Origin: Alphaproteobacteria bacterium
GTDB lineage: Bacteria; Pseudomonadota; Alphaproteobacteria; Bin95
Direction of reading: 5' to 3'
DNA length: 64,000 bases
Assembly: GCA_964291285.2 (NCBI GenBank)
Contig: OZ219788.1
Location: 704,001 to 768,000 of the forward strand
This document shows, piece by piece, positions 1 through 63,150 of this stretch (position 1 is its first letter; each line of letters starts with the position of its first letter). A program made the position numbers and the translations under genes. A model generated the notes under the pieces. The model worked only from the letters and a program-made list of their open reading frames with translations, was not told the origin of the DNA and ran no database searches.

Positions 1-1097
1 GGAGGTGACCGCGCCGCCGGCGGTGCGACTGTTCGAGACCACGCCTTACGGGATCAGCGTCTGGACGTGCATGCTCTACGAACGGTTCGTCTGCTGCCGG
101 CCGCTGCATCGGGTCGCGGCCTGGCTGGCCGACATGGGGCTGACGATCTCGCCGGGCACCCTGCAGCATCAAGCGCTTCGTGCCGCTGTTCGAGCCGCTG
201 GCCGAGGCGATCCTTGCGCACCAGAACACCGCGGCCCTGCGCCATGCCGACGAAACATCCTGGCGCGTTCGGGCCTGGCGCGAGAAAGGCCGGTCGAGCC
301 GCGCCTGGCTGTGGACCTCGGTGAGCCCGGACGCGGTCTATTACCACATCGATCCCTCGCGCAGCGCCGAGGTCGCGATGAAGCTGTTCGGTTCGACACA
401 GGGCATCGTGGTTCTGGTCTGCGACCGGTTCAGCGCCTACAGAAAGCTGGCCCGCGAACTCGCCGGCAAGGTGATCCTGCAATGGTGCCGGGCGCACCAA
501 AGGCGCTCGTTCATCGACGGCGCGGCCGGGCGGGTGCGGCTCAGGCGCTGGTGCCAGAGATGGATCGAGCGGATCGCGGAGATCTACCGGCTCAACCAGG
601 CGCGGCTGGAGCATTACGACCCCGCTCACCCTCTCGAACGCCAGACGCCGGCGTTCGACGTCGCGCACGCCAGGCTGAAGAAGGCGGTCGACGAGCTGTT
701 CGCGGCCGCCGAAGCGGAACTGGCCGGGCTGACGGACAGGGCGCGCAGGGCCAGGCCGCTGCGCTCGCTCCTCAAGCACCGCGAGGGGCTGTGCGTCTTC
801 GTCGACAAGCCGTTCGTGCCCATGGACAACAACCGCGGCGAACTCTCCCTGCGCTTCGCGGTCATCGGGCGACGGCTCTCGTTCGGCTCCGACAGCGAGA
901 AAGGCGCCGGGTTCACGGCGACGATGTACTCGGTGGCCGGCACGCTGGCGATCAACGGCATCGACGTCCGGCGCTGGCTCGGTGAATGGCTGACCGCGTG
1001 CGCGGAGAACGGCGGCGAGCCGCCGGAAGACCTCTCGCCCTGGCTGCCGTGGTCGATGAGCGAGGCGCGCCGGCGCGAACTCGCGGCGGCGGGATGA
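1..1097 (+). pseudogene. tnpC: IS66 transposase TnpC, 5' end outside window, frameshifted near 163-180
   Basis: Frame of ORF 5 reads ...RPLHRVAAWLADMGLTISPGTL, then switches to the ORF 180-1097 frame with IS66 motifs HADET, CDRFSAY, QWCRAH, PMDNN, LPW. Confidence 0.85.
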
Positions 1098-1975
1098 CCG
1101 GCGCGGTCGAGTGTCGCTATTACGGGCGCGACTTCACCGAAGATGAAATGGCGCTGCTGCGTGCCCTGATCGCCGATCCCGCCCCGCTCTCCCGCCGCGC
1201 CCTGTCGATCGAGTTCTGCCGGCGCATCGGCTGGCTCAAGCCCGACGGCGGACTGAAGGACATGATGGCCCGTGTCGCCATGCTCGCCATGCACAAGGAC
1301 GGGCTCATCGAGCTGCCGCCGCCGAGGCGGCGGCAGCACCGGCCCAGGCCGGTCCAGTTCGGACCCGACACCGAACCGCCGCTGTTCCCGGCGCCCACGA
1401 CCCTCGACGAGGTCCGCCCGCTCGACTTCCGCACCGTCGTGCACAGCACCCGCGAAGGCAGGCTCTGGAACGAGTTCATCGCCCGCTACCACTATCTCGG
1501 ACACAAGACACTGGTCGGCGCCCAGATGCGCTATGCCGTCCACGACCGCAACGGCTGGCCCGTCGCCATGCTCGGCTTCTCCACCGCCGCATGGAAGCTC
1601 GCCCCGCGCGACCGCTTCATCGGATGGACGCCCGAACTGCGCGAAAAGAACCTTCCTCTCGTCGTCGACAACCCGCGCTTCCTGATCCTGCCCTGGATCG
1701 AGATCCCCAACCTCGGCTCGCACATCCTCGCCATCGTGCGCCGCCGCCTGCCCATCGACTGGACCGGGCGCTACAACATCACGCCGGTGCTCATCGAGAC
1801 CTTCGTCGAAACGCCCCGCTACACCGGTGCCGTATACCGCGCATCGGGCTGGACCCGCGTCGGGACCACCCAGGGCCGGGGACGCTACGACAGGCACAAC
1901 AAACGAGACCAGCCGAAAAAGGACATCTGGCTCCGCACACTGCGAAAAGACTGGCAACGCACCCTCAATCGGTAG
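1094..1975 (+). CDS. DUF4338 (DruA-like / Mom-like GNAT-fold) protein with N-terminal extension
   Basis: ATG at 1094 overlaps the tnpC stop (ATGA). Motifs WNEFIARYHYLG, RDRFIGW, NPRFLILPW, NLGSHIL, ETFVE, GAVYRASGWTRVGTTQGRG. Confidence 0.85.
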   Translation: MTGAVECRYYGRDFTEDEMALLRALIADPAPLSRRALSIEFCRRIGWLKPDGGLKDMMARVAMLAMHKDGLIELPPPRRRQHRPRPVQFGPDTEPPLFPAPTTLDEVRPLDFRTVVHSTREGRLWNEFIARYHYLGHKTLVGAQMRYAVHDRNGWPVAMLGFSTAAWKLAPRDRFIGWTPELREKNLPLVVDNPRFLILPWIEIPNLGSHILAIVRRRLPIDWTGRYNITPVLIETFVETPRYTGAVYRASGWTRVGTTQGRGRYDRHNKRDQPKKDIWLRTLRKDWQRTLNR

Positions 1976-2054
1976 AAGCACAACCGTCGCCCCGGTGTGA
2001 AAATGCCGACAAGCGGATAACCCAATCCTCATCCCCCGGAACCCGAACGGATAC

Positions 2055-2219
2055 CGTCGGGCGATAGACCGTTTGTCGGCATGCGCGAGCCGGCAACGCC
2101 TCTTTTCGGATCGATTCGGTCTCGGGCCGCTATCTGGAAACAGGCTTGGTTTGCCGGAGGCCAAGAAAAACCAGTAAAATCAGTGCTGTATAGAAGATTC
2201 AAAATATCCTGCAACATTG
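2055..2219. mobile_element. Probable IS4-type terminus remnant
   Basis: Non-coding segment ending CTGCAACATTG (revcomp CAATGTTGCAG, an IS4-like CAAT end) exactly where the next transposase is truncated. Confidence 0.35.
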
Positions 2220-3120
2220 AGGGCAAGCACGAGACGGGCGAGGTGAACGCGAAGACCGGCGCGGTGTGGAAGAAGGTGAAGTCGTGGTTCGGCTACGGGC
2301 TTCACCTGATCGCCGACACGGACCACGAGGTTCCTGTGGCCTTCGAGGTGACGCGGGCGTCGGCGTCCGAGCCCGGGGCGCTGTCCGGGATGGTGGAGGA
2401 GTTGTTCGCCAGGCGCCGGAGATGGCCGGGCGCTGCGCCACCTTCAGCGCCGACCGCGGTCTTGACAACGCCCGCCTGAAGGCGCGGCTGTGGGACAGGT
2501 GGCATATCCGCCCGCTGATCGACACGCGCCTGATGTGGCGGGTCGAGAAGAAGGAGCCGGGCCATGACCCGGCCGGGCCGATCACGCGACCGCTGTTCCC
2601 CGGGCGCGCCGACGTCATCGTTCATGACGAACGCGGCCGGGTGTCCTGCGTGTGCCCGCAGACCGGCGAGGTCCGCGCCATGGCCTTCCAGGGGTTCGAG
2701 GCCGGGCGCGGCGTCTGCGGCACGCTCGAATACCGCTGCCCCGCAGCCGCCTTCGGCTTCGAGTGCAAGGGACGCCGGGCCTGCCATCGGGCGGGTGGGG
2801 TGAAGTCCGGCGAATACGGCCGCATCCTGCGCGTCGATCCCGACAGCCATGACCGGCGCCTCTTCACGCCCACGCCCTGGGGCAGCCCGTCATGGCGGCG
2901 CGGATACAACCGGCGCACCGCCATGGAGCGGATCAACGCCCGCCTCGACCGCAGCTTCAACTTCGAGACCCATTACATCCGCGGACGCGCGAAGATGAAG
3001 ACCCGCATCGGGCTGGCCCTGGCGGTCATGATGGCCATGGCGCTTGCACAGGCCCGCGCCGGACGCGTCGCACGCATGCGCTCCCTGGTCGGCCCGGCGC
3101 CATACCTCGATACCGGCTGA
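2220..3120 (+). pseudogene. DDE transposase (IS4/IS5/IS1182-like), 5'-truncated and frameshifted near 2410
   Basis: WFGYGLHLIAD in ORF 2081, then ADRGLD and YNRRTAMERINARL in ORF 2266. Confidence 0.8.
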
Positions 3121-3123
3121 CCC

Positions 3124-3574
3124 CTCAGCCGACTGCCGACAACGCTGATCCAACCCGCCGGACCCCGGCATACGGACACCCGCGACCGAAGGCCGGCGAT
3201 GCTGCCGGGCTGGGCCGCTCAAGTTCGAAAAGCAACCGCGGCGACTGCCTCGAACGCCGGAACAAACCGTGCCTATCCGCTTGTTTCATACACCCACTAG
3301 ATGTGGGGTAACGGGATGCTGCCAATTTCCGGAGTACCATCCGGCGAAGGTCGGGCCTTCCGTCGTCGCTGCGATCCGAAACCCAGGCAGCGACTGGGGA
3401 AACTCCAAGTCGGGACTATCGAAAATGTCCATGAAGCACCGCCCTCCCGGCTCACCGGGAGCCTACTATATCTAGTGGGTGTATGAAACAAGCGGATAGG
3501 CACGGAACAAACAACATCACCACCCGGACCCAACGTCCCATCCGACCGGAAAAACCCCACAGCGCAAATTTCTC
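3124..3574 (+). repeat. Right non-coding end of the IS above (MITE-interrupted); inverted copy at 7970-8173
   Basis: Near-identical to the reverse complement of 7970-8173 once 3268-3504 and one TSD copy are removed; ends ...GCGCAAATTTCTC. Confidence 0.85.
3268..3504. mobile_element. MITE, probably IS1595 family (ISSod11-like ends)
   Basis: 35-bp perfect TIR CGTGCCTATCCGCTTGTTTCATACACCCACTAGAT; 8-bp direct repeat GAACAAAC on both sides; empty site visible in the 7970-8173 copy. Confidence 0.85.
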
Positions 3575-17588: not shown

Positions 17589-19284
17589 CCTAAATCCGGC
17601 AGTTGAGGATGGCTTGGCCTTGCCGAATCCCTTGTAGTCTGCGGGTATGAGCGGCTTTTCAGGGGCCGAAGAGGCTCACCCTTTGGGTGATTATCCTGGC
17701 GCTGTGCGGGATGTCGCCCGAGCGTCGGTGAAGGTGGACACCTTCGGCGGCGCGGTTCATGTGGAATGGGACCCTGATGCGGCGGTGACGCCGCTGGGGC
17801 ATCTGGCGTTTTTCTCGGAATACCTGAAGGTAAGCGGTCGCTTTGACGCTTTGGTTGCGGACTGCCCGCTGCACTACACGAGCCCGAACGCGCCGTCGAA
17901 GCGGGATGTCCTGGGGACGGTTCTTCTGTCGGTTCTGGCGGGGCAGTCTCGCTATGCGCACATCACGTCGCTGCGCGGCGACGGGGTGAACCCTGCGCTG
18001 CTGGGTATGGACAAGGTTGCGAGCGAGGATTCGGTGCGGCGCGGTCTGGAGCGGATCGGTGCGGATGTCGGCACATCGTGGCTTCAGGGCCATCTGGACG
18101 AGGTGGTCCGTCCGCTGCTGAGGGAGCCGTGGGTTCTGGACTGCGACACGACGATCAAGGCGCTTTACGGTCGTCAGGAGGGGGCGGTTGTGAGCTACAA
18201 CCCGAAGAAGCCGGGCCGCCCCTCGCATGCCTGCCATGCGTTCCTGATGGCGGGCACGCGGCTTGTTCTGGATGTCGAGGTGGCGCCGGGCAACCATCAC
18301 CATTCGAGGCGCGCGGCGCCGTCCTTGTGGGCGTTGCTCGACCGTCTCGGTCGGGATCGCTGGCCGCGTCTGGTGCGGGGCGATAAGGACTGGGGCAGCG
18401 AGGCCAACATGGCGTCGTGCGAGGCTGCGGGTCTGGACTATTTGTTCAAGCTGCGCCTGACGAAGGGGGCGCGCCGGCTTGCCGAGCGGCTGATGGTGCG
18501 GGACGGCTGGGAGGATGCAGGCCAGGGCTGGTCGGGGATCGGGGCCGATCTGCGTCTGCAGGGCTGGAGCCGGACGCGCCGGGTTGTGGTGCTGCGTCGG
18601 CGGCTTCCTGCGACGCTGGCGCTGACGCGTGGCGACAAGGCCCAGGGCGAGCTGTTCTGGACCGAGGCGCAGCCCGGCACCGGGGTGTGGGAGTTCGCGG
18701 TGCTGGCGACCTCGCTGGACCTGGAGATACGCTCGCTGGCCCAGCTCTACCGCGACCGGGCGGACGCGGAGAACGGCTTCGACGAGTTGAAGAACCAGTG
18801 GGGTTGGGGCGGCTTCACCACGCGCGACCTGACGCGCTGCCGGCACATGGCCCGGCTGATCGCGCTCATCTACAACTGGTGGAGCCTGTTCGTGCGCCTC
18901 GCCGACCCCGACCATCACCGCGAGGCGATCACCAGCCGGCCGCTGCTCCTGCACGGGGTTGCCCGCCAGACCCACCACGCCGGCCAGACCCGGCTGACGG
19001 TGACCTCCCATCACGGGCGTCGCAAGACGGTGATGGCGGCGCTGCGCCGGATCGCCGGCTTCTTCCGGTCGCTGACGCAAACTGCGGAGCAGTTGAGCGC
19101 CGGGGATCGCTGGCGCCGCATCCTCGCCGAGGCGCTCAGGAAATACCTCCATGGCCGCGAACCGGGGCGTCAACCCTGGCTGCCGCCACCCAGGGCCGCG
19201 ACCACGTGCTGAAATCCACGCCCAAATCCGACCGTTCACACTACCCCGAGACAGCGATCAAGCTCGTCAACTGCCGGATTTAGG
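17589..19284 (+). mobile_element. IS1380-family element 2
   Basis: 18-bp perfect TIR CCTAAATCCGGCAGTTGA; no clear TSD. Confidence 0.9.
17647..19212 (+). CDS. IS1380 transposase
   Basis: VLDCDTT, VRGDKDWG, YRDRADAENGFDELKNQWGWGGF. Confidence 0.92.
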   Translation: MSGFSGAEEAHPLGDYPGAVRDVARASVKVDTFGGAVHVEWDPDAAVTPLGHLAFFSEYLKVSGRFDALVADCPLHYTSPNAPSKRDVLGTVLLSVLAGQSRYAHITSLRGDGVNPALLGMDKVASEDSVRRGLERIGADVGTSWLQGHLDEVVRPLLREPWVLDCDTTIKALYGRQEGAVVSYNPKKPGRPSHACHAFLMAGTRLVLDVEVAPGNHHHSRRAAPSLWALLDRLGRDRWPRLVRGDKDWGSEANMASCEAAGLDYLFKLRLTKGARRLAERLMVRDGWEDAGQGWSGIGADLRLQGWSRTRRVVVLRRRLPATLALTRGDKAQGELFWTEAQPGTGVWEFAVLATSLDLEIRSLAQLYRDRADAENGFDELKNQWGWGGFTTRDLTRCRHMARLIALIYNWWSLFVRLADPDHHREAITSRPLLLHGVARQTHHAGQTRLTVTSHHGRRKTVMAALRRIAGFFRSLTQTAEQLSAGDRWRRILAEALRKYLHGREPGRQPWLPPPRAATTC

Positions 19285-21329
19285 ATGACTGGTTCAAGGA
19301 TTCCGGCGGCGGCAGCATCGCGGACGGCAACGGCGGGCACGACTATCTCGAAGGCGGCAATGGGCTGAACATCCTGCGCGGCGGCTGGGGCAACGACATC
19401 CTGGTCGGGAACCAGAAGGACCAGATCTCCGACCGCCTCCATGGCGGGTCCGGGAACGACTTCCTGATCGCGGGCAAGCTCAAGGCGAGCAACCGGCAGG
19501 ACGACGGCACCGGCGCGCTGACCGACGCGACGCGTGGGCGGGGACCGATCTCCAACCAAGCCGGGGATCCGCAGGGAAGCCTCCTCCATGGCGGCCATGG
19601 GGGCGACCATTTCATCCTCAACCCCGACAGCTATGTCTATATCGAGGATTTCCGGCATTGGCACGACTACATCTACGTGACCGGGATCCGGGACGGGGCG
19701 GAGCTCACCATTGTCCACCACCCCGACGGCCACTACGGGAAGGCCCACTTTCGGATCATGCTCGGCAACAAGGTACTCGCCGAGCTCAAGTTCGAGGAGG
19801 AAGTCAATCCCGATGACGCCGAAGCCGTGAGGGTGGCGAAAGGGAAGATTGACGAGTTCCTGGAGACCGCGAGCGGGGACTGGATCAACGGCGACCATAA
19901 TGACAACACCATTCGGGGCACCGCGCATTCCGACCATATCTACGGCCACGGCGGCGAAGACACGCTCACGGGCGGCGCGGGAGACGACGCTCTCGTCGGC
20001 GGCCAAGGCAACGATGTCCTTCGCGGCGAGGACGGCAACGACAGGCTGCAAGGCGGCCGCGGCAACGACACGCTTTGGGGCGGCGCGGGCATGGACTCGC
20101 TGGACGGCGATGGCGGCAACGACCTGCTCTACGGCGGCGGCGGCGACGACGGGCTCTACGGCGGCGACGGCCACGACAGGCTCGATGGCGGCGCCGGCTG
20201 GGACGTGCTCTACGGCGGCGACGGCCGGGACATCTTCGTGATCAGCGAGGGCCGGAGCAGCGACGGGCGCGCTGGCACCATCGGGGACTTCAATGTCAAG
20301 GAGGACTACATCCGGTTGCCGTTCAACGTTTCGTGGGACGATGTCCGGTTTGTCCGGGGCCCGGAGGGGCCCGGGCCGACCACGCACCTTGTCACCGGCA
20401 CCGGCGACTCGCAGAAGGTGCTGGCCCGGTTCGACGAATTCGAGGATCTCACTGCCCAGCAGCTGCAGGAGCTCAAGAACAAGGTCGAGTTCATCTGGGA
20501 CTTCGACCCGAACAAGGAGTATCCGGACCCGCAGGCCGGGAAGACGCTCACGGGCACGAACAGGAAGGACCTGCTCGTCGGCGACAGCGGCAACGACATC
20601 ATCAAGGGTCTGGACGCGTTTGACGTGCTCTACGGGCGCGGCGGCGACGACAGGCTCTTCGGCGGCAATGGCAAGGACACGCTGTATGGCGGCAGCGGCA
20701 GCGACTCGCTGTTCGGGGATGGCAACAACGACATCCTCCACGGCGGCGCCGACGGCGACACGCTGAACGGCGGGGACGGCGCCGACCGGCTGTATGGCGA
20801 AGGCGGCGACGACACGCTGAACGGCGACAATGGCGACGACATGCTGTATGCCGGCGTCGGCAGCGACATGCTGGACGGCGGGAACGGCAACGACCGCCTG
20901 GAAGGCGGCGAGGGCGGTCTCGACGTGCTGGCCGGCGGCGCGGGCGAAGACCGGCTGTTCGGCAACGGCGGCAACGACCGTCTGGAGGGCGGCGAGGGCT
21001 CCGACCGTCTGCGCGGCGGCGAGGGCGCCGACGAGTTCCTGTTCCGCGCCGGCGACGGTGTGGACGTCATCGCCGACTTCGAGGACGGGACCGACACGAT
21101 CGTCTTTCTGGCCCAGACCTGGGCGAATGCCGGGACCGACACGAAGTTCCTTTCGTTCTCCGACCTGGTGCTGACCGACAGCGAGGAGGCGGGCGGCGTG
21201 GTCATCACCTCGGACAAGCTCGCAGGCAACGAGATCATCGTCAGGGGCGTGACGTCCGAGATGCTGACGGCCGACGACTTCGGCTTCCTGACGGTCGATC
21301 AGTACAACGAACACCTCGACATCGGCTGA
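19284..21329 (+). pseudogene. RTX Ca-binding repeat protein 2, 5'-truncated by IS1380
   Basis: Frame is open from the IS border (DDWFKDSGGG...GGHDYLEGGNG...) into ORF 19677-21329, with many nonapeptides and ADDFGF near the C-terminus. Confidence 0.85.
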
Positions 21330-21762
21330 GCCGCTTCCGGCCAGCGGTAAGACTGCGGCCGCTCCTCGGCGAGGGGCGGCCGCAACTGCGATTACCGCAA
21401 TCAGGGCAGGGGGCAGCCGGCGCCAACCGGTTTGCCGGCAGACCGCAAGCCCGGTGGACGGGCCGCCAGGGCGATGCGGGAGCGGGCGGTTTCGTGAGGG
21501 CCATGTCCCTGTCGCGGGAACAGTCTCTGTTGCGTCTGTTTGCACGGGGCGTGCCGCAGCCGGGTACCAGCCGGCATGCATGCCGCGCCGCGCGAAATTT
21601 TTTTCATCATGCCACAGGGGGCGCATGCGGGGCCTGCCGTGTCCTGGAGGGGACAGGCTGTTGATTCCGCACAGGAAATCCCCTTGCTGCACCGTTTGAC
21701 AATGCCATTTCGCAGGGACAAATCTGCTCCCGGAGACGCGGTTGTGCGGGGGAGCGGCAGGC

Positions 21763-21975
21763 ATGGAGACAGGCAGCGACGACGGCGCGCGCGGGGACCT
21801 TCGCCGCGCCGCCGCCAACGACAATCCTGCCCCGGACAGCGGGCCGGAAGCCCGGATCGAGGCCGCAGCGCTACGCCTCGCCCGCTTGCTGGGCCGGCAG
21901 ATCGCGCGCGAGCGCTTCGAGGCGGGCCGCGCCGCCAACGACAATGCGCCGGCGGACGAGGCCGGCGACGGATAG
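21763..21975 (+). CDS. Small protein of the type found beside alphaproteobacterial serine recombinases
   Basis: LARLLGRQIARERFE core flanked by two AANDN motifs; RBS GGGGAG. Confidence 0.6.
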   Translation: METGSDDGARGDLRRAAANDNPAPDSGPEARIEAAALRLARLLGRQIARERFEAGRAANDNAPADEAGDG

Positions 21976-22271
21976 GTGACCCGGACCCGTGACCCCGCGC
22001 GCGGCGTCCTGGGCCCGCTACAGCCCGAGCCGTTCGAACGTCCGAAGCGGCAGGTACAGGCGCAGCGGCCGCGACGGGAACGGCACGAAGCCGTACCGCT
22101 CGTAGAAGGCGCTGGCGCGGTCGTGCAGCGCATCGACCACGACGGCATAGACGCCGATGGTGTCGCCCGCGCGGACGACCCGATGGATCGCATCGAGCAG
22201 CAGGGTCTCGCCGAGCCCGCTTCCCTGACTGCGAAGATCGACGTAAGCGGTGCGGGGGAGGCACCCGGCTT

Positions 22272-23891
22272 TCAGCTTGACGGCGTCTGGAAGTTCCAGG
22301 GCAGGAGTTCGTCGATGCGGCTGTTGGGATGACCTGCCGCGATCTTTTCGAGCGTGATCTTGAGCCAGGCGTAGGGCTCGACACCGTTCATCTTCGCCGT
22401 CTCGATGAGCGAGCCGATGCGGCCCCAGGAGCGCGCGCCCTCGTCGTGGCCGGCGAACAACGCATTTTTCGCGGTGAGCTTGATCGGCCGGATCCGATTT
22501 TCGACGAAGTTGCTGTCCATCTCGACGCGCCCGTCGTGCAGGAAGACCAGCAGCCCGTCCCACTGGTTGGCGATGTAGGTCAACTTCTCGCCGAGGCGGG
22601 ACTTGGGCGAGACGCGCGAGCGCTGCTCGTCGAGCCACACCCCGAAGGCGTTCACCAGCGGCGCGGACCCGGTCCAGCGGACGAACTGGCGCGTCGCCGG
22701 CTCCTCACCCCGGATCCTGTCCTCGATCCTGTAGAGCTGCGCGATGCGCTCCAGTCCGGCCTTCGCGATCGGCGAGCGGCTGCTGTCGAACACCGTCTCA
22801 AGGCCGCGCCTGGCGTGTGCCCAACAGGCACAGAGCGTCAGCGCCCCGCCCGGGCGATCCGCCCGGCCGAGCCGGTTGTGGCCGGCATAGCCGTCGACCT
22901 GCACCGATCCCTGGAAGCCCTCGAGGAGCTTCTCGCCATGCTTGCCGCTGCGCCCGGGCGCATACTCATACGCCACCCCCGGCGGGTCCGCCCCGGACCA
23001 GGCCCGCTGGTCGCGCACCATGGTCCACAGATAGCCGGTTTTGGTCTTGCCCCGGCCCGGGTCGAGAACCCGAACCGTGGTTTCGTCCAGACCCAGGGTG
23101 CTCGACGTCTTCAGCGCCGTCTTCAGGCGCTCATACACGGGGCGCAAGTGGAACGCCGCCTTGCCGACCCAGCCGGCCAGCGTCGAGCGGTCCAGTTGCA
23201 GCCCCGAGCGGGCATGGATCCGGGCCTGGCGGTACAGCGGAAGGTGGTCGGCATATTTGGAGATCAGGACATGGGCGATGGCGCCTTCGGTCGGCAGCCC
23301 ACCCTCGATCAGCCGCGCCGGCGCCGGCGCCTGGGTAACGCCTTCCTCGCACTTGCGGCAGGCGTATTTCGGGCGCACCGTGACGATCACCCGCAACTGC
23401 GCCGGCACGATGTCGAGCCTCTCGGCGCGGTCCTCGCCGATCTTCACCATCTCCCCGCAGCCGCAGGGGCACAGCGTGCTCTCCGGCTCGATCACCTGCT
23501 CGATCCGTTCCAGGTGCTCCGGCAAATGGCCGGGATTGCGCTCCGGGCGGGGCTTCCTCGGTGCGCGCGGCGGCGACGGATTGTCGGCCGCGACCTGTGC
23601 TTCCCCCTCCGCAGACGCGCCCTCCAGCTCCTCGAACGCCAGCTGGCGCTCGTCCGCCGACAGCTTCTCCGACCTCTTGCCATACACAAGGCGGACCAGT
23701 TCAAGGTTCAGATGCTCCAGACGGCGGATGCGCGCCGACAGCGCCTCATTCTCACCCGCGAGGCAGACCTTCTCTTCCGTCAGCGTCCTGTTCTCGGTGC
23801 GAAGCGTCTCCAGAGCCGCAAGCGCCTGCCTCGCAGCCGCGGCCTGTTCCGGCGTCAGCGTGTCGAGGTCCATCTCCGCAAGCGCTGCCAT
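22272..23891 (-). CDS. tnpC: IS66 transposase TnpC
   Basis: YGKRSEK, CPCGC, DHLPLYRQ, LDET, CWAHARR, DSNFVENRIR, LLPW. Confidence 0.95.
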   Translation of the reverse strand: MAALAEMDLDTLTPEQAAAARQALAALETLRTENRTLTEEKVCLAGENEALSARIRRLEHLNLELVRLVYGKRSEKLSADERQLAFEELEGASAEGEAQVAADNPSPPRAPRKPRPERNPGHLPEHLERIEQVIEPESTLCPCGCGEMVKIGEDRAERLDIVPAQLRVIVTVRPKYACRKCEEGVTQAPAPARLIEGGLPTEGAIAHVLISKYADHLPLYRQARIHARSGLQLDRSTLAGWVGKAAFHLRPVYERLKTALKTSSTLGLDETTVRVLDPGRGKTKTGYLWTMVRDQRAWSGADPPGVAYEYAPGRSGKHGEKLLEGFQGSVQVDGYAGHNRLGRADRPGGALTLCACWAHARRGLETVFDSSRSPIAKAGLERIAQLYRIEDRIRGEEPATRQFVRWTGSAPLVNAFGVWLDEQRSRVSPKSRLGEKLTYIANQWDGLLVFLHDGRVEMDSNFVENRIRPIKLTAKNALFAGHDEGARSWGRIGSLIETAKMNGVEPYAWLKITLEKIAAGHPNSRIDELLPWNFQTPSS

Positions 23892-23942
23892 GGCCCGCTC
23901 GATAGCACAGTGTCGGGGAGCCGGGGGCCCCGATCCGCTGAG

Positions 23943-24296
23943 TCATTCCGCCTCAGCCGGGGCCCGGACGGACAGCGCCCGAACACGACGCCAGTCCAGC
24001 CCGCAGAACAGCGCCTCGAACTGTGCATGGTTCAGCGTCATGACACCGTCGCGGATCGCAGGCCACACGAAGCCCTGATCCTCCAGACGCTTGTAGACCA
24101 TCACCAACCCGGTCCCGTCATGGAAGACGAGCTTCAGCCTGTCGCTTCGTTTTGCCCTGAAGAGGAAGACCGTTCCCGTGAACGGGTCCTTGCGCAACAC
24201 GCTCTTCACATGCGCAACAAGGCCGTCGTGCTGCTTCCTGAAGTCCACGGGCTTCGTCGCAACGACGATCCGCACACGGTTCGATGGGAAGATCAT
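23943..24296 (-). CDS. tnpB: IS66 accessory protein TnpB
   Basis: PVDFRK.HDGL, DGTGLVMVYKRLE. Confidence 0.95.
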   Translation of the reverse strand: MIFPSNRVRIVVATKPVDFRKQHDGLVAHVKSVLRKDPFTGTVFLFRAKRSDRLKLVFHDGTGLVMVYKRLEDQGFVWPAIRDGVMTLNHAQFEALFCGLDWRRVRALSVRAPAEAE

Positions 24297-24679
24297 GACG
24301 CCGCGTTCAGCGCAGAAACGATCTCCGCCAACCGTCCCGCCGGCACGGCCGCGTCCAGACGGACCGTAACCCTGTCCATAACGACTTCCAGACGCGCGCC
24401 GCTCGCCTCACCGACACCGCTACCCTCCGCCCGGACAACCAGCGGCGCAAACGCCACTTCCGCCGCAGGCAAAACAAGCCGACCTTCCCGCGCCAGGCGA
24501 CGCCAGCCCGTCAACCGGTTCGCATGGACGCCATGTCTGCGCGCAACCTCGCGAACCGTCGCACCCGGCTCCAGCGTCTCCGCCACAATCCGCCCCTTCA
24601 AATCATCCGGCCAGCGACGACGACCGCCTCCAACCGGAAGCACTTCTACGCTCCTGAGTGTCTCAACTGAGCCCAACAT
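24293..24679 (-). CDS. tnpA: IS66 TnpA (HTH)
   Basis: RRRWPDDLKGRIVAETLEPGATVREVARRHG; RBS GGAGG before ATG 24679. Confidence 0.9.
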   Translation of the reverse strand: MLGSVETLRSVEVLPVGGGRRRWPDDLKGRIVAETLEPGATVREVARRHGVHANRLTGWRRLAREGRLVLPAAEVAFAPLVVRAEGSGVGEASGARLEVVMDRVTVRLDAAVPAGRLAEIVSALNAAS

Positions 24680-25050
24680 TGTGAAACTCACCTCCTGCTC
24701 AAATCACAGAAGGGGAAGCCCAAATCACGCCTGCAACTGGAAGGGGGCTCAGCCGCCCCGCTTACAGATCGACGGCCAGCCGCCCGATGACGGCCGCCGG
24801 CACGGGATAGTGCGGCAGCCGCCGGGCGAGGTCCGCCGGCAGGTTGTCCTTCTCGAAGCTTGCCGCGCTCAGCGTGTAGTAGCCGGCGATCCGTTCCGAC
24901 GGGTCGCCCGGTGCGACGAACACCCGCGCGACGCGCCGCCGGGCGTCCTGGGAAGCTTGCCGGCGGATGTAGCGGTCGAGCGACGGCTCCCCGCAGGAGA
25001 AGGTCGCGCGGTCGTGATGCGGGCCGGGCGGCTCGACCGTCAGCGGCGCT

Positions 25051-61353: not shown

Positions 61354-63150
61354 GTGCCGGTCATGGCGAGGTTTCTGTTTGCGGGTGTTTGGGTTGATCT
61401 TCGCGCGGTCACGGTGCGCCCGACCTGGGGGGCACGGGAGCACCGGCGCTGGGACGATTTGGTAGCGGCGCACCACTATCTGCGGTTCCACGGCATCATC
61501 GGCAAGGGTCTGCGCCATGTCGCGGTTCATGGCGAGGCCTGGCTTGCCCTGGTTGGCTGGCAGCCTGGAGCGTTCAAGGTGGGAGCGCGGGACCGCTGGA
61601 TCGGGTGGTCGGCGGAGCAGCAGTTCCGTCGCCTGCATCTGGTTGCCAACAACTCGCGCTTTGTCATCCTGACGCCTGAGCGGGTTCCCAACCTTGCCTC
61701 GCGGGTGCTGGGGCTGAGCGTGCGGCGGCTGTCGCAGGACCTGCGGGCGGCGCATGGCTATCCGGCTGTTGTGGCGGAGACGTTTGTGGACGTCTCGCGC
61801 TTCGCCGGCACCTGCTACCGCGCGGCCAACTGGCGCTCTTTGGGTCTGACGCGCGGCTTTGCCCGCGAGCCCGGAGGGGTGGCGCGCTGGCGTCACCACG
61901 GCCAGCCCAAGGAGGTCTTCGTGTTCGAACTGACACACGGCGCCCCCGAGGCGCTGAGCCATCCCGAGATACCGGCAGACTGGAACGCTGAGCAGCACAC
62001 CGAGCCGATGGCGGCGCCCCGGCTGCGCAGCCTGTTCGAGTGTTTGGGCGAGGTGCCCGAATACCGCCATGCCCGGGGCAAGCGCTATGCGCTCACCACC
62101 ATTCTGACGCTGGCCGTTGCCGCCCGGCTTGCCGGATACCGGGGTGTGAACGCCTTCGCCCAGTTCGCCGCCCTGCTCTCCCAGAAGCAACTCAAGGCGG
62201 TGGGCGCCTTCTGGAGCCCATCCAGGCAGTGCTACACGCCGCCGGCGGTCACCACCTTCCACAACATCCTCGCCGCCCTGCCGCCACAGACCCTGGACAA
62301 TGCCATCGGCCAGTGGGCCGGACAGCACAGCAGTGCGCACGCGCCTGTGGCCATGGACGGAAAGGATTTGCGCGGTGCCTCGAAGCAGAGCGAAGACCGG
62401 CGCAGGAGGATGGTCGCTGCGGTGGCGCATGACACCGGCGTGGTCCTCGGGCAGGTCGAAGTCAGCTCCAAAAGCAACGAAATCCCGGCCGTGCGCGAAC
62501 TCTCCAGCGGTCTCGACCTCACAGGCCGGATCGTCACCATCGATGCGATGCACGCCCAGCACGAGACCGCGCGTTGCCTGCTCGAACGCCGTGCCGACTA
62601 CGTGGTCAGCGCGGTGAAGGGCAACCAGCAGACCATCCTCGAAGACCTCAAGGCGATCGACTTCAGCGATGCGCCCTGGCACGAAACCGTCGACAAGGGC
62701 CATGGTCGCATTGAGCGCCGACGCTGCGCCGTCGTCGACCTCTGCGCTGCCGAGTGGGACGGCTACGCCCACCTTCACGGGCGCCGCCAGGCAATGCGCA
62801 TGGAACGCGAGCGCAAGATGCTCAAAACCGGCAAGCGCAGCATCGAGGTCACCTGGAGCCTGACGTCGCTTGGCGCAGAGCGAGCCGGCCCCAAGGAGCT
62901 TCTCGATCTGGTGCGCAACCACTGGCACATTGAGAACCGTGTGCACTATGTGCGTGACTTCACCTATGACGAAGACCGTTGCCGGGCATATGTGCGCCAC
63001 CTGCCCGGAAATCTGGCCTGCTTGAGCAACGCGGCCATCGCTATCGTGCGCTGCGACGGACGCTTCCGATATGTACCCGAGGCCAACCGGCACTACGCCG
63101 CCCGCGCCCAAGAGGCCCTCGACGCGATTATGATCGCGCCCAGAGGCTGA
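61354..63150 (+). CDS. DUF4338 - ISAs1 transposase fusion (start approximate)
   Basis: N-terminal HHYL, RDRWIGW, NNSRF, NLASRVL, ETFVD, GTCYRAANW; C-terminal AMDGK, KSNEIP, TIDAMHAQ, VKGNQ, HGRIE, RNHWHIEN..H..RD..ED. Confidence 0.92.
   Translation: MPVMARFLFAGVWVDLRAVTVRPTWGAREHRRWDDLVAAHHYLRFHGIIGKGLRHVAVHGEAWLALVGWQPGAFKVGARDRWIGWSAEQQFRRLHLVANNSRFVILTPERVPNLASRVLGLSVRRLSQDLRAAHGYPAVVAETFVDVSRFAGTCYRAANWRSLGLTRGFAREPGGVARWRHHGQPKEVFVFELTHGAPEALSHPEIPADWNAEQHTEPMAAPRLRSLFECLGEVPEYRHARGKRYALTTILTLAVAARLAGYRGVNAFAQFAALLSQKQLKAVGAFWSPSRQCYTPPAVTTFHNILAALPPQTLDNAIGQWAGQHSSAHAPVAMDGKDLRGASKQSEDRRRRMVAAVAHDTGVVLGQVEVSSKSNEIPAVRELSSGLDLTGRIVTIDAMHAQHETARCLLERRADYVVSAVKGNQQTILEDLKAIDFSDAPWHETVDKGHGRIERRRCAVVDLCAAEWDGYAHLHGRRQAMRMERERKMLKTGKRSIEVTWSLTSLGAERAGPKELLDLVRNHWHIENRVHYVRDFTYDEDRCRAYVRHLPGNLACLSNAAIAIVRCDGRFRYVPEANRHYAARAQEALDAIMIAPRG

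Follow-up and report, generated by a model that had tools for sequence, protein, structure and literature searches.

A DruA-family gene of predicted Mom-like GNAT fold is an integral part of an IS66-type insertion sequence

Described here is an insertion sequence of the IS66 type that carries, directly behind its transposase gene, a second gene whose protein product is predicted to adopt a GNAT fold closest to that of Mom, the DNA-modifying enzyme of phage Mu. In the usual view, an insertion sequence contains nothing beyond what its movement requires. The gene was encountered in an alphaproteobacterial contig (OZ219788.1), 64,000 nucleotides of which were analyzed and are referred to as the window. 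It is conserved, selected, and often fused to a transposase, and its product has the predicted fold and most of the active-site residues of Mom. We are highly confident that it represents an integral, selected, Mom-like GNAT accessory gene of the insertion sequence. On balance, if only by a little, we also favor the view that the protein modifies nucleic acid in concert with the transposase. A specific donor or target is proposed with less assurance.

Organization of the insertion sequence

The ends of the 3208-bp element were fixed by a comparison of six genomic copies that are 100% identical. These copies stop exactly at the position equivalent to window position 2054, and thus the right terminus that had been placed there by an earlier, sequence-only reading of the window is real. 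The termini form a perfect 24-bp inverted repeat, GTATCCGTTCGGGTTCCGGGGGAT, the right copy of which occupies positions 2031-2054. All six copies are bordered by perfect 8-bp target duplications, and in each of them both the transposase gene and the DruA-like gene are enclosed by the inverted repeats and the duplications. The insertion sites are five rather than six in number because two of the copies share a duplicated flank. A seventh copy (C3:1376739) is 99.2% identical and lacks a clean target duplication.

The order of the element is the left inverted repeat, the gene for a 721-residue DDE transposase, an ATGA overlap, the gene for the 293-residue DruA-like protein, and the 79 bp between that gene and the element end with the right inverted repeat. 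Reading the open frames of the whole 3208-bp element revealed just two long sense ORFs, with tnpA and tnpB absent. The suggestion that the DruA-like gene is a passenger of IS66 holds with respect to its integral, coupled position; the upstream gene, however, is a lone transposase gene. A second isoform of the element, found in four copies, is 3610 bp in length with a 50-bp inverted repeat. It encodes an 838-residue transposase followed by ATGA and a DruA-like gene that is 83% identical to that of the window. Altogether, twenty-four copies coexist in one genome (8+4+12), where the four are those of the 3610-bp isoform and the twelve are those of an ISAs1 fusion considered below. A scan of the whole element for sigma-70-like promoters found none; in DNA of 68% GC such a scan is weak and uninformative.

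The copy in the window is decayed. The window starts within the transposase gene, such that only the 3' 1.1 kb is included (1..1097, plus strand), with the TGA stop at 1095-1097. The frame at 180-1094 matches the Pfam domain DDE_Tnp_IS66 with an E-value of 4.3e-41, that at 2-175 matches weakly (E 0.0036), and the intact 721-residue transposase matches PF03050 at E 8.4e-53. Alignment to an intact 3208-bp copy revealed a 5-bp deletion between positions 163 and 164 that breaks the frame. The DruA-like gene next to the broken transposase differs by one substitution only, and the contrast between an intact and a frameshifted gene drawn in the earlier reading is correct. The remainder of the decayed copy lies upstream of the window, where it is interrupted by an inserted IS of 1164 bp and by a gap of 28 bp. 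On the other side, the 3' non-coding end of the element (1976..2054, plus strand) finishes with the right inverted repeat, the reverse complement of the left end. It is followed by the right target duplication, cgtcgggc (2055..2062, no strand assigned), which matches the left copy, cttcgggc, located outside the window, in seven of eight bases. The insertion target of this copy was the end of another, decayed IS, which gives weak DDE_Tnp_1 and DDE_Tnp_1_6 matches at 2081-3120.

The two genes meet in an ATGA overlap at 1094..1097 (plus strand), as read from the sequence; the ATG at 1094 begins the DruA-like gene, and the TGA closes the transposase frame at 180-1097, just as first noted. The overlap, which couples the two genes translationally, is kept in 38 of 38 unique related loci. 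A programmed -1 frameshift that would produce a fusion was rejected, given that the final 150 nt of the transposase gene contain no conserved slippery heptamer across the 38 unique loci. The open stretch in the DruA frame upstream of its start varies from 36 to 1153 codons among loci, and a long stretch of this kind looks like an effect of GC content. The region is covered by metatranscriptome contigs from relatives (80-99% alike), some of which span the junction between the two genes; this is a hint only, as such contigs are not equivalent to transcription.

The DruA-like protein

The gene extends from the ATG at 1094 to the TAG at 1973-1975 on the plus strand and encodes 293 residues. Its assignment to the DUF4338/DruA family was borne out by a match to the Pfam DruA profile, PF14236, with an E-value of 8.8e-37 and 127.3 bits versus a cut-off of 27. 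The match extends from residue 103 to residue 269 and covers only profile positions 43-227 of 297. The protein can be described in terms of a small three-helix N-terminal domain delineated by residues 1-75 (1094-1318, plus strand), a proline-rich linker formed by residues 76-104 (plus strand), and a Mom-like GNAT core with a basic C-terminal tail from residues 105-293 (1406-1972, plus strand). Residues ~105-290 belong to the GNAT (acyl-CoA N-acyltransferase) fold superfamily, and DUF4338 is called a GNAT domain in a published comparative analysis (PMC10853773). A complex prediction for the C-terminal 472 residues of the transposase and the DruA-like protein returned a score of 0.00, which speaks neither for nor against binding.

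The DruA-like gene has dN/dS values of 0.11-0.28 in 23 pairwise comparisons with the reference, and the transposase gene, at comparable dS, has values of 0.32-0.80; these are simple NG86 estimates in GC-rich DNA. Codon comparisons of this kind place the DruA-like gene under purifying selection. Among the loci retrieved, each of the 40 unique DruA genes is open (38 of 293 residues and two of 290 residues), and the transposase frames upstream are open for fewer than 700 residues in 16 of 40 loci. The pairing of an intact DruA-like gene with a broken transposase gene was nevertheless discarded as a sign of separate selection, since the loci had been chosen by DruA similarity and broken DruA copies occur elsewhere. 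Intactness of the gene in the 80 loci is biased because these were selected by similarity to that very gene.

Comparison with Mom

To our knowledge, Mom is the only enzyme that hypermodifies DNA adenine with a tRNA-borne amino acid. It is a Gly-tRNA-dependent, N6-adenine DNA hypermodifying GNAT (PDB 8BV8; Pfam PF25680) that transfers glycine from Gly-tRNA to the N6 of adenine in double-stranded DNA. Among solved structures it is the closest to the 293-residue protein, but its lead over the ordinary protein and small-molecule acetyltransferases is no more than 1.3 Z units. The fold of the protein is, on the strength of modeling, that of a GNAT with Mom as its nearest relative. At the sequence level, the family profile found no match at E<=1 among PDB chains. 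In Pfam, the 293-residue protein itself has no Mom match at E<=1. Weak Pfam Mom matches are seen in 13 of 40 family members, the best with an E-value of 0.0033.

A profile-profile alignment (hhalign) to 25 Mom homologues extends over 150 columns with an E-value of 0.0011 and a probability of only 20%. When a single Mom sequence was compared with the family profile, only 25 columns were aligned (E 0.031), and the comparison is useful only with an alignment of the Mom family. PMC13219725 lists H58, Y59, R111, S124, D149, R151, and Y159 as active-site residues of Mom, in the numbering of that paper. The profile alignment pairs H133/Y134, S209, E239, R242, and Y248 of the DruA-like protein with Mom residues important for activity, namely H58/Y59, S124, D149, R151, and Y159, and thus with six of the seven. 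Position 239 is either glutamate or aspartate among family members. Of 40 aligned family members, 35-39 retain the residues at the paired positions, as does the ISAs1 fusion. Essential Arg 111 of Mom falls in an alignment gap without a counterpart, and an invariant Arg 195 lies six residues away. In the same alignment, the stretch of Mom past the Tyr 159 counterpart is unpartnered, and it is here that PMC13219725 describes an insertion unique to Mom.

Two further differences set the proteins apart. The DruA-like protein has an extra N-terminal domain plus linker of ~100 residues, and its partners, by coupling or by fusion, are the DDE transposases of insertion sequences, whereas Mom is expressed late from a phage operon. 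The acetyl-CoA motif of GNATs is Q/R-x-x-G-x-G/A. The segment after strand β-4 in the DruA-like family is PNL(A/G)S, which resembles PRNSES of Mom and is unlike that motif.

Spread of the pairing and transposase fusions

Relatives of the protein are encoded in 504 of 541 candidate stretches from a collection of genome contigs. A survey of IS66 and DUF4338 co-occurrence, as envisaged in the earlier reading, placed the end of an IS66 transposase gene directly upstream in 79 of the best 80 loci. In the reverse survey, this transposase subgroup contributed 36 gene 3' ends from 61 genomes, and 35 of them have a DruA-domain match just downstream. The element occurs in many MAGs of Alpha- and Gammaproteobacteria, with protein identities of 83-98%, and 8282 representative proteins match at E<=0.001. 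The two-gene unit is a conserved, widespread IS66 sub-lineage that occurs as a single fused protein in a sister lineage. Among the 120 longer homologues listed, 99 contain PF03050 with PF14236 and eight contain IS4/Tn5-type domains; domain scans confirmed both the IS66-DruA and the DruA-Tn5-type architectures.

A third fusion is encoded by a separate element in the window (61354..63150, plus strand). This 598-residue ISAs1-family transposase, present in 12 copies in the genome, contains DruA, DDE_Tnp_1_assoc, and DDE_Tnp_1 domains (Pfam) and matches the NCBIfam model transpos_ISAs1 at E 1.5e-62. Its N-terminus is a DruA-like GNAT core with 36% identity to the 293-residue protein (residues 118-276 of the latter), and it is without the N-terminal three-helix domain. 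The DruA-like domain is C-terminal or coupled in IS66 and N-terminal in the IS4/Tn5 and ISAs1 fusions. A plasmid collection contained only two matching records, both from Candidatus Thiodictyon, in one of which the gene lies beside an integrase and IS91 transposase pair, with the other annotated as an ISAs1 transposase.

Relation to Druantia

Druantia type I is an operon with DruB-DruE, where DruE is a large helicase with an MZB/DUF1998 domain. The DruA-like gene is not a Druantia component. As first noted for the window, no other Druantia gene was found: PF09369 (MZB/DUF1998) was not found in the organism's own genome, which is 100% complete, in a search whose control detected the domain in 8 of 14 known genomes, and the neighbors of the gene are transposase genes and IS ends. 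With the DruA of Druantia type I, the protein has in common the Pfam core (PF14236/DUF4338) at profile positions 43-227. The PADLOC DruA model matches residues 142-193 only, with an E-value of 0.001 and 16.3 bits. A Druantia-like DruA from a related genome, by contrast, is 493 residues in length and covers the whole profile with 275 bits, yet it scores only 32 bits on the profile of the IS-linked core and sits on a separate, very long branch. Other DruA-domain proteins of related genomes are found in a Druantia-like locus or beside ATPases. A literature search identified only one paper naming DruA together with DruB and DruC and none describing a single-gene Druantia. The label "Druantia anti-phage system protein DruA" probably over-calls defense systems in IS-rich genomes.

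Proposed role and alternatives

As a Mom-like transferase, the protein would transfer an acyl or aminoacyl moiety to nucleic acid, and most probably to DNA, with the donor being an aminoacyl-tRNA, by analogy to Mom, or an acyl-CoA. It would act where the transposase acts because the ATGA coupling or the fusion produces both together. DNA contact would be the task of the N-terminal three-helix domain and of the basic tail; in the ISAs1 fusion it would fall to the DNA-binding part of the transposase. The mark would be placed on the element ends, the transposition intermediate, or the new insertion, and would either modulate transposition or protect the marked DNA against host nucleases. The pairing in hundreds of genomes and the fusions suggest that some transposons chemically mark nucleic acid in their life cycle. 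The wider proposal, that DDE transposases from three or more IS families have on repeated occasions recruited a distinct clade of Mom-like GNAT enzymes, which writes a covalent acyl or aminoacyl mark on DNA in the transposition cycle, is a tentative one, and we consider it possible but doubtful. If it held, these transposons would perform a DNA hypermodification step of their own, and the unexplained DruA of Druantia might be a DNA-marking enzyme of the same stock. As a whole, the interpretation given in the sequence-only reading is partly supported.

The similarity to Mom can also be taken in a different sense. The established role of Mom is restriction evasion (PMC13219725), and the protein, which is free-standing in this lineage, could act in trans as anti-restriction or counter-defense cargo, as Mom does for Mu, by modifying DNA genome-wide with no role in transposition. 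Plasmids, phages, or fragments with the IS would then survive restriction in a new host, and horizontal spread would be gained; the many alpha- and gammaproteobacterial MAGs and their protein identities fit frequent horizontal transfer. Repeated covalent fusion to the transposases of three IS families is hard to explain if the modification is genome-wide, however, and Mom is toxic and tightly regulated according to the Mom papers, yet the 8+4+12 copies coexist in one genome. We judge this explanation to be unlikely. Toxicity of another kind would be expected of a GNAT toxin similar to TacT or AtaT, which would acylate charged tRNA and, through addiction or growth arrest, stabilize the IS. Gly-tRNA is bound by Mom, the structure of which is compared in PMC13219725 with that of the tRNA-acetylating toxin TacT. 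The two long sense ORFs of the 3208-bp element leave no antitoxin-like small ORF, though, the twenty-four copies are tolerated, and fusion to a transposase is unlike a toxin-antitoxin architecture, such that a toxin is highly improbable.

If the protein were instead a protein acetyltransferase, it would acylate the transposase or a host DNA-architectural or replication protein and thereby switch transposition on or off. Mom ranks above all protein acetyltransferases structurally, the residues held in common are those that distinguish the Mom active site, and PNL(A/G)S takes the place of the acetyl-CoA motif, all of which makes this proposal less likely again than anti-restriction in trans. Finally, the Pfam family is named after DruA, and the DruA-domain proteins in the Druantia-like locus or beside ATPases would agree with a defense cargo related to Druantia type I that senses or marks invading DNA, with the IS merely its carrier. 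The genome in which MZB/DUF1998 was not found, the PADLOC match of only 16 bits, the very long branch between the IS-linked clade and the Druantia-like protein, and the literature search with no single-gene Druantia all argue against such cargo, and its probability is very slim.

If the protein does modify DNA, transposons would possess a self-encoded epigenetic or protective step not described before. Chemistry of the Mom type, known from a handful of phages, would then also belong to thousands of mobile elements, and a lead open to testing would be gained for the DruA of type I Druantia.

Relation to other insertion sequences

Transposition of IS10 and IS50 is controlled by Dam methylation, where a mark on the ends governs transposase binding and expression. 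That mark is made by a host enzyme, whereas the element described here would, by analogy, carry its own and chemically different writer. A point against the proposed role is that canonical IS66, like most insertion sequences, needs no gene of this kind to transpose. No paper tying DUF4338/DruA to IS66 or to any transposase was found in the literature search. A canonical tnpA-tnpB-tnpC IS66 element without a DruA-like gene is indeed present in the window, as the sequence-only reading had indicated, near 22272-24691 on the minus strand, with both tnpA (HTH) and tnpB (IS66 Orf2) in place upstream of tnpC. By comparison, the 3208-bp element is without tnpA and tnpB, its transposase has a long coiled-coil N-terminal extension (721-838 residues), and the Mom-like GNAT gene is coupled to the transposase 3' end. 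Its close relative is presumably the single-transposase ISBst12-type subgroup of IS66. With the IS66 family as such, it has in common the DDE_Tnp_IS66 domain, the 8-bp target duplication, and terminal inverted repeats that start with GTA.

Structure of the element

The window begins within an IS66-type transposase gene. In frame 3, positions 180-1097 match the Pfam family DDE_Tnp_IS66 (E 4.3e-41), and the match continues upstream in a short stretch of frame 2 (2-175). As described in a sequence-only reading of this DNA, the transposase stop codon (TGA, 1095-1097) shares bases with the start codon (ATG, at 1094) of a DUF4338 gene. This DruA-like gene runs for 293 codons on the forward strand, ends at 1975, and matches the Pfam DruA/DUF4338 profile at 127 bits over positions 43-227 of 297, which confirms its identity.

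The genome is 6.1 Mb in size (5 contigs, 68% G+C) and contains 32 matches to the DruA-like protein: 8 are full-length at about 100% identity, 4 show 83% identity, 12 show 36% identity, and 8 are fragments. For the eight close copies, ungapped extension halts at the same two points, delineating a unit of 3208 bp whose termini form a perfect 24-bp inverted repeat. Six of the copies are 100% identical across all 3208 bp, and each of the six is flanked by perfect 8-bp target direct repeats; the distinct sites number five because two copies sit in a duplicated segment. Only two long sense ORFs are found in the unit, namely a 721-residue transposase (element positions 86-2251), in which the IS66 DDE domain is the sole domain matched, and the DruA-like gene (2248-3129), with the right end of the element lying 79 bp beyond. 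Given that in the other copies the second gene is positioned inside the shared borders and target repeats in six of six cases, the suggestion that it might lie outside of the element fails, and its proposed status as an integral part of an IS66 element is borne out.

Neither tnpA nor tnpB is present in the 3208-bp element. In contrast, the canonical IS66 element at window 22272-24691 carries all three of the expected genes, tnpA, tnpB, and tnpC. Abutting it is a 985-residue ORF on the reverse strand (19236-22193), which gave no Pfam match at E ≤ 0.001 and which, the DNA being 68% GC, is possibly not a genuine gene. The 83% isoform has the same layout in an element of its own, with 4 copies of 3610 bp and a 50-bp inverted repeat, in which an 838-residue transposase is joined through an ATGA overlap to the DruA-like gene.

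Three lesions set the copy in the window apart from the intact ones: insertion of a multicopy IS of 1164 bp at 59 bp from the left end of the element (G000:C4:701782-702945, shortly before the window begins), a 28-bp alignment gap at element positions 748-777, and a 5-bp deletion between window positions 163 and 164 that disrupts the reading frame of the transposase. The DruA-like gene shows one change, G79R. It is indeed intact beside a frameshifted transposase, but only five bases differ inside the window and thus the contrast alone says little. The target duplication of this copy matches at 7 of 8 bases. The interrupting 1164-bp IS is itself present in at least 11 full-length copies of at least 98.5% identity. 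The insertion target was a decayed IS at 2055-3200 with weak DDE_Tnp_1 and DDE_Tnp_1_6 matches, and the copies at C5:372305 and C3:1376739 occupy the equivalent place in copies of that same decayed IS in opposite relative orientation. This shared location could mean that the end of that IS is a preferred target, or that one nested insertion occurred and then spread.

Selection on the two genes was compared in 23 full-length relatives against the reference element. The dN/dS ratio ranged from 0.11 to 0.28 in the DruA-like gene and from 0.32 to 0.80 in the transposase; these are simple NG86 estimates in GC-rich DNA, and more weight can be placed on the comparison between the two genes than on the values themselves. 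The dS values were alike (0.26-0.52 versus 0.11-0.56, respectively). Accordingly, constraint on the DruA-like gene is no weaker than on the transposase, and the gene is not a module that was swapped in recently.

Fold and relation to Mom

An AlphaFold2 model of the DruA-like protein, built with an alignment of 40 family sequences, has a mean pLDDT of 91.8 and a pTM of 0.81, and displays a GNAT fold over residues ~105-290. A Foldseek search retrieved 194 PDB chains at E ≤ 0.001, GNATs throughout among the matches listed. In the viral library a phage Mom model ranked ninth with an E-value of 4.9e-7, better than that of any PDB GNAT. Many phage proteins of ~500-560 residues, annotated as homing endonucleases or endonuclease-like, also contain a domain that matches the model (BFVD, E 1e-6 to 1e-4), another pairing of the GNAT fold with a mobile-DNA enzyme.

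The protein encoded in the window gave no match to Pfam Mom, but weak matches were observed for 13 of the 40 sequences in the family alignment, and in one nearby ESM Atlas cluster 12% of the members have both families. A profile-profile comparison with 25 Mom homologues aligned 150 columns (E 0.0011, probability 20%), pairing H133/Y134, S209, E239, R242, and Y248 with Mom H58/Y59, S124, D149, R151, and Y159. According to PMC13219725, the Mom variants R111A, S124A, and R151A are without activity, and that of H58A, Y59A, and Y159A is drastically reduced. D149A is cited there from a 2020 study, which (PMC7261163, where it is numbered D139A) reports loss of both iron binding and DNA modification. 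In the 40-sequence alignment H133 and S209 are each kept in 39, R242 in 37, Y134 and Y248 in 36, and E/D239 in 35. The essential R111 of Mom falls opposite a gap; an arginine six residues upstream, R195, is invariant (40/40). The interpretation first offered, that the gene may encode an IS-borne, Mom-like DNA-modifying enzyme, is supported in part, with respect to fold, kinship to Mom, and location inside the element.

Distribution of the transposase-DruA pairing

When one genome per species was scanned, 504 stretches encoding a relative were identified. Among the best 80 loci (83-98% identical, mostly from MAGs of alpha- and gammaproteobacteria, each with numerous copies), the end of an IS66 transposase lies directly upstream in 79, and the ATGA overlap is kept in 38 of 38 unique sequences. 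As those loci had been picked by similarity to the DruA-like gene, a reverse survey was conducted in which 61 related genomes were searched with the transposase and the positions compared by eye with DruA-domain matches. For 35 of the 36 transposase 3' ends of the subgroup, a DruA-domain match follows just downstream on the same strand, the sole exception being a fragment (in G001). The gene is thus no one-off passenger; the pairing is general. Sixteen DruA-domain loci, hand-picked and non-random, were sampled from a Pfam-based search of relatives: 7 are IS66-adjacent, 2 are ISAs1-fused, 1 adjoins an IS4-like piece, 2 are decayed and alone, 1 is Druantia-like, 2 lie beside ATPases, and 1 is located between two DDE_Tnp_1 genes.

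Among the longer homologues listed, 99 of 120 are single proteins that contain both an IS66 transposase domain and a DruA domain, typically 802-811 residues long, located on contigs of 2.5-3 kb, and in some cases named "IS66 family transposase" by their sources, and 8 of 120 contain IS4/Tn5-type domains. Pfam scans of 13 long representatives revealed IS66 plus DruA in 4, DruA plus IS4/Tn5-type domains in 5, DruA only in 3, and no match in 1. The window itself encodes, at 61354-63150 on the forward strand, a 598-residue ISAs1-family transposase whose first ~190 residues form the same DruA-like GNAT core, with the counterparts of the Mom active-site residues also kept; there are 12 copies in the genome, among which two right-border variants occur.

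In this IS lineage the Mom-like GNAT gene is an integral component under selection, made from the message region of the transposase via the stop/start overlap and elsewhere as one polypeptide with it. The finding is larger than was first recognized: a widespread partnership of transposases and a Mom-like enzyme across several IS families. On a Candidatus Thiodictyon plasmid (L011, NZ_CP020372.1 282572-285774), a DUF4338 gene of 38.7% identity precedes genes for a site-specific integrase and an IS91-family transposase, and all three are inserted together in a split DUF2235 gene; this is a possible fourth associated IS family. In the tree comparison, an IS66-labelled fusion and a DDE_Tnp_1-labelled fusion (P0291 and P0292) have near-identical GNAT domains, which hints that IS families have exchanged the module or else that the gene calls are chimeric.

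The architecture is already visible in databases, in precomputed Pfam strings and in sources calling the fusions "transposase", and a comparative paper names DUF4338 a GNAT domain (PMC10853773). A search of full-text literature revealed no paper tying DUF4338/DruA to IS66 or any transposase, or DruA to Mom, although ISfinder, TnPedia, or supplementary files may list such elements; neither "transpos" nor "Druantia" appears in the main text of the 2026 Mom paper (PMC13219725). For these reasons, we regard it as a member of the IS66 family whose class of accessory gene had not been described before, and not as categorically new.

Possible function

Because transposases from three unrelated DDE families are physically linked to the domain, its most likely site of action is that of the transposase itself. 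The nearest characterized relative, Mom, uses Gly-tRNA as the donor for adding glycine to adenine of double-stranded DNA (PMC13219725), and thus a nucleic-acid transferase is the most economical reading. The DruA-like protein would be an acyl or aminoacyl transferase acting on nucleic acid, probably DNA, that marks the element ends, the transposition intermediate, or the new insertion. Such a mark might control transposase binding, in the way that Dam controls IS10/IS50, or alternatively might shield the DNA from host nucleases.

On balance we lean, by a small measure, toward this predicted transferase working with the transposase. Genome-wide anti-restriction in the style of Mom, acting in trans, is the less probable alternative we would consider next, and acylation of a protein, either the transposase or a host factor, appears somewhat less probable again. 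A role in defence and a tRNA-directed toxin are both very improbable.

Relation to Druantia

The DruA-like gene is not a Druantia component. The MZB/DUF1998 domain, the marker of DruE, is absent from the genome, and the PADLOC DruA model scores the protein at 16 bits. A Druantia-like DruA from a related genome, in contrast, contains 493 residues, scores 275 bits over the full Pfam profile, and is followed by large ORFs without a Pfam match; against the core profile of the IS-linked proteins it reaches only 32 bits, and a very long branch separates it from them in the tree. The IS-linked proteins fall into a single large group, within which IS66-fused, IS4/Tn5-fused, and ISAs1-fused clusters are well supported. 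Two further loci (L107 and L108, in G003:C3 and G004:C608) encode proteins of 663-686 residues with a C-terminal DruA domain beside an HATPase_c_3 or AAA_16 protein, and are possibly defence-type systems apart from both Druantia and the IS-linked clade.
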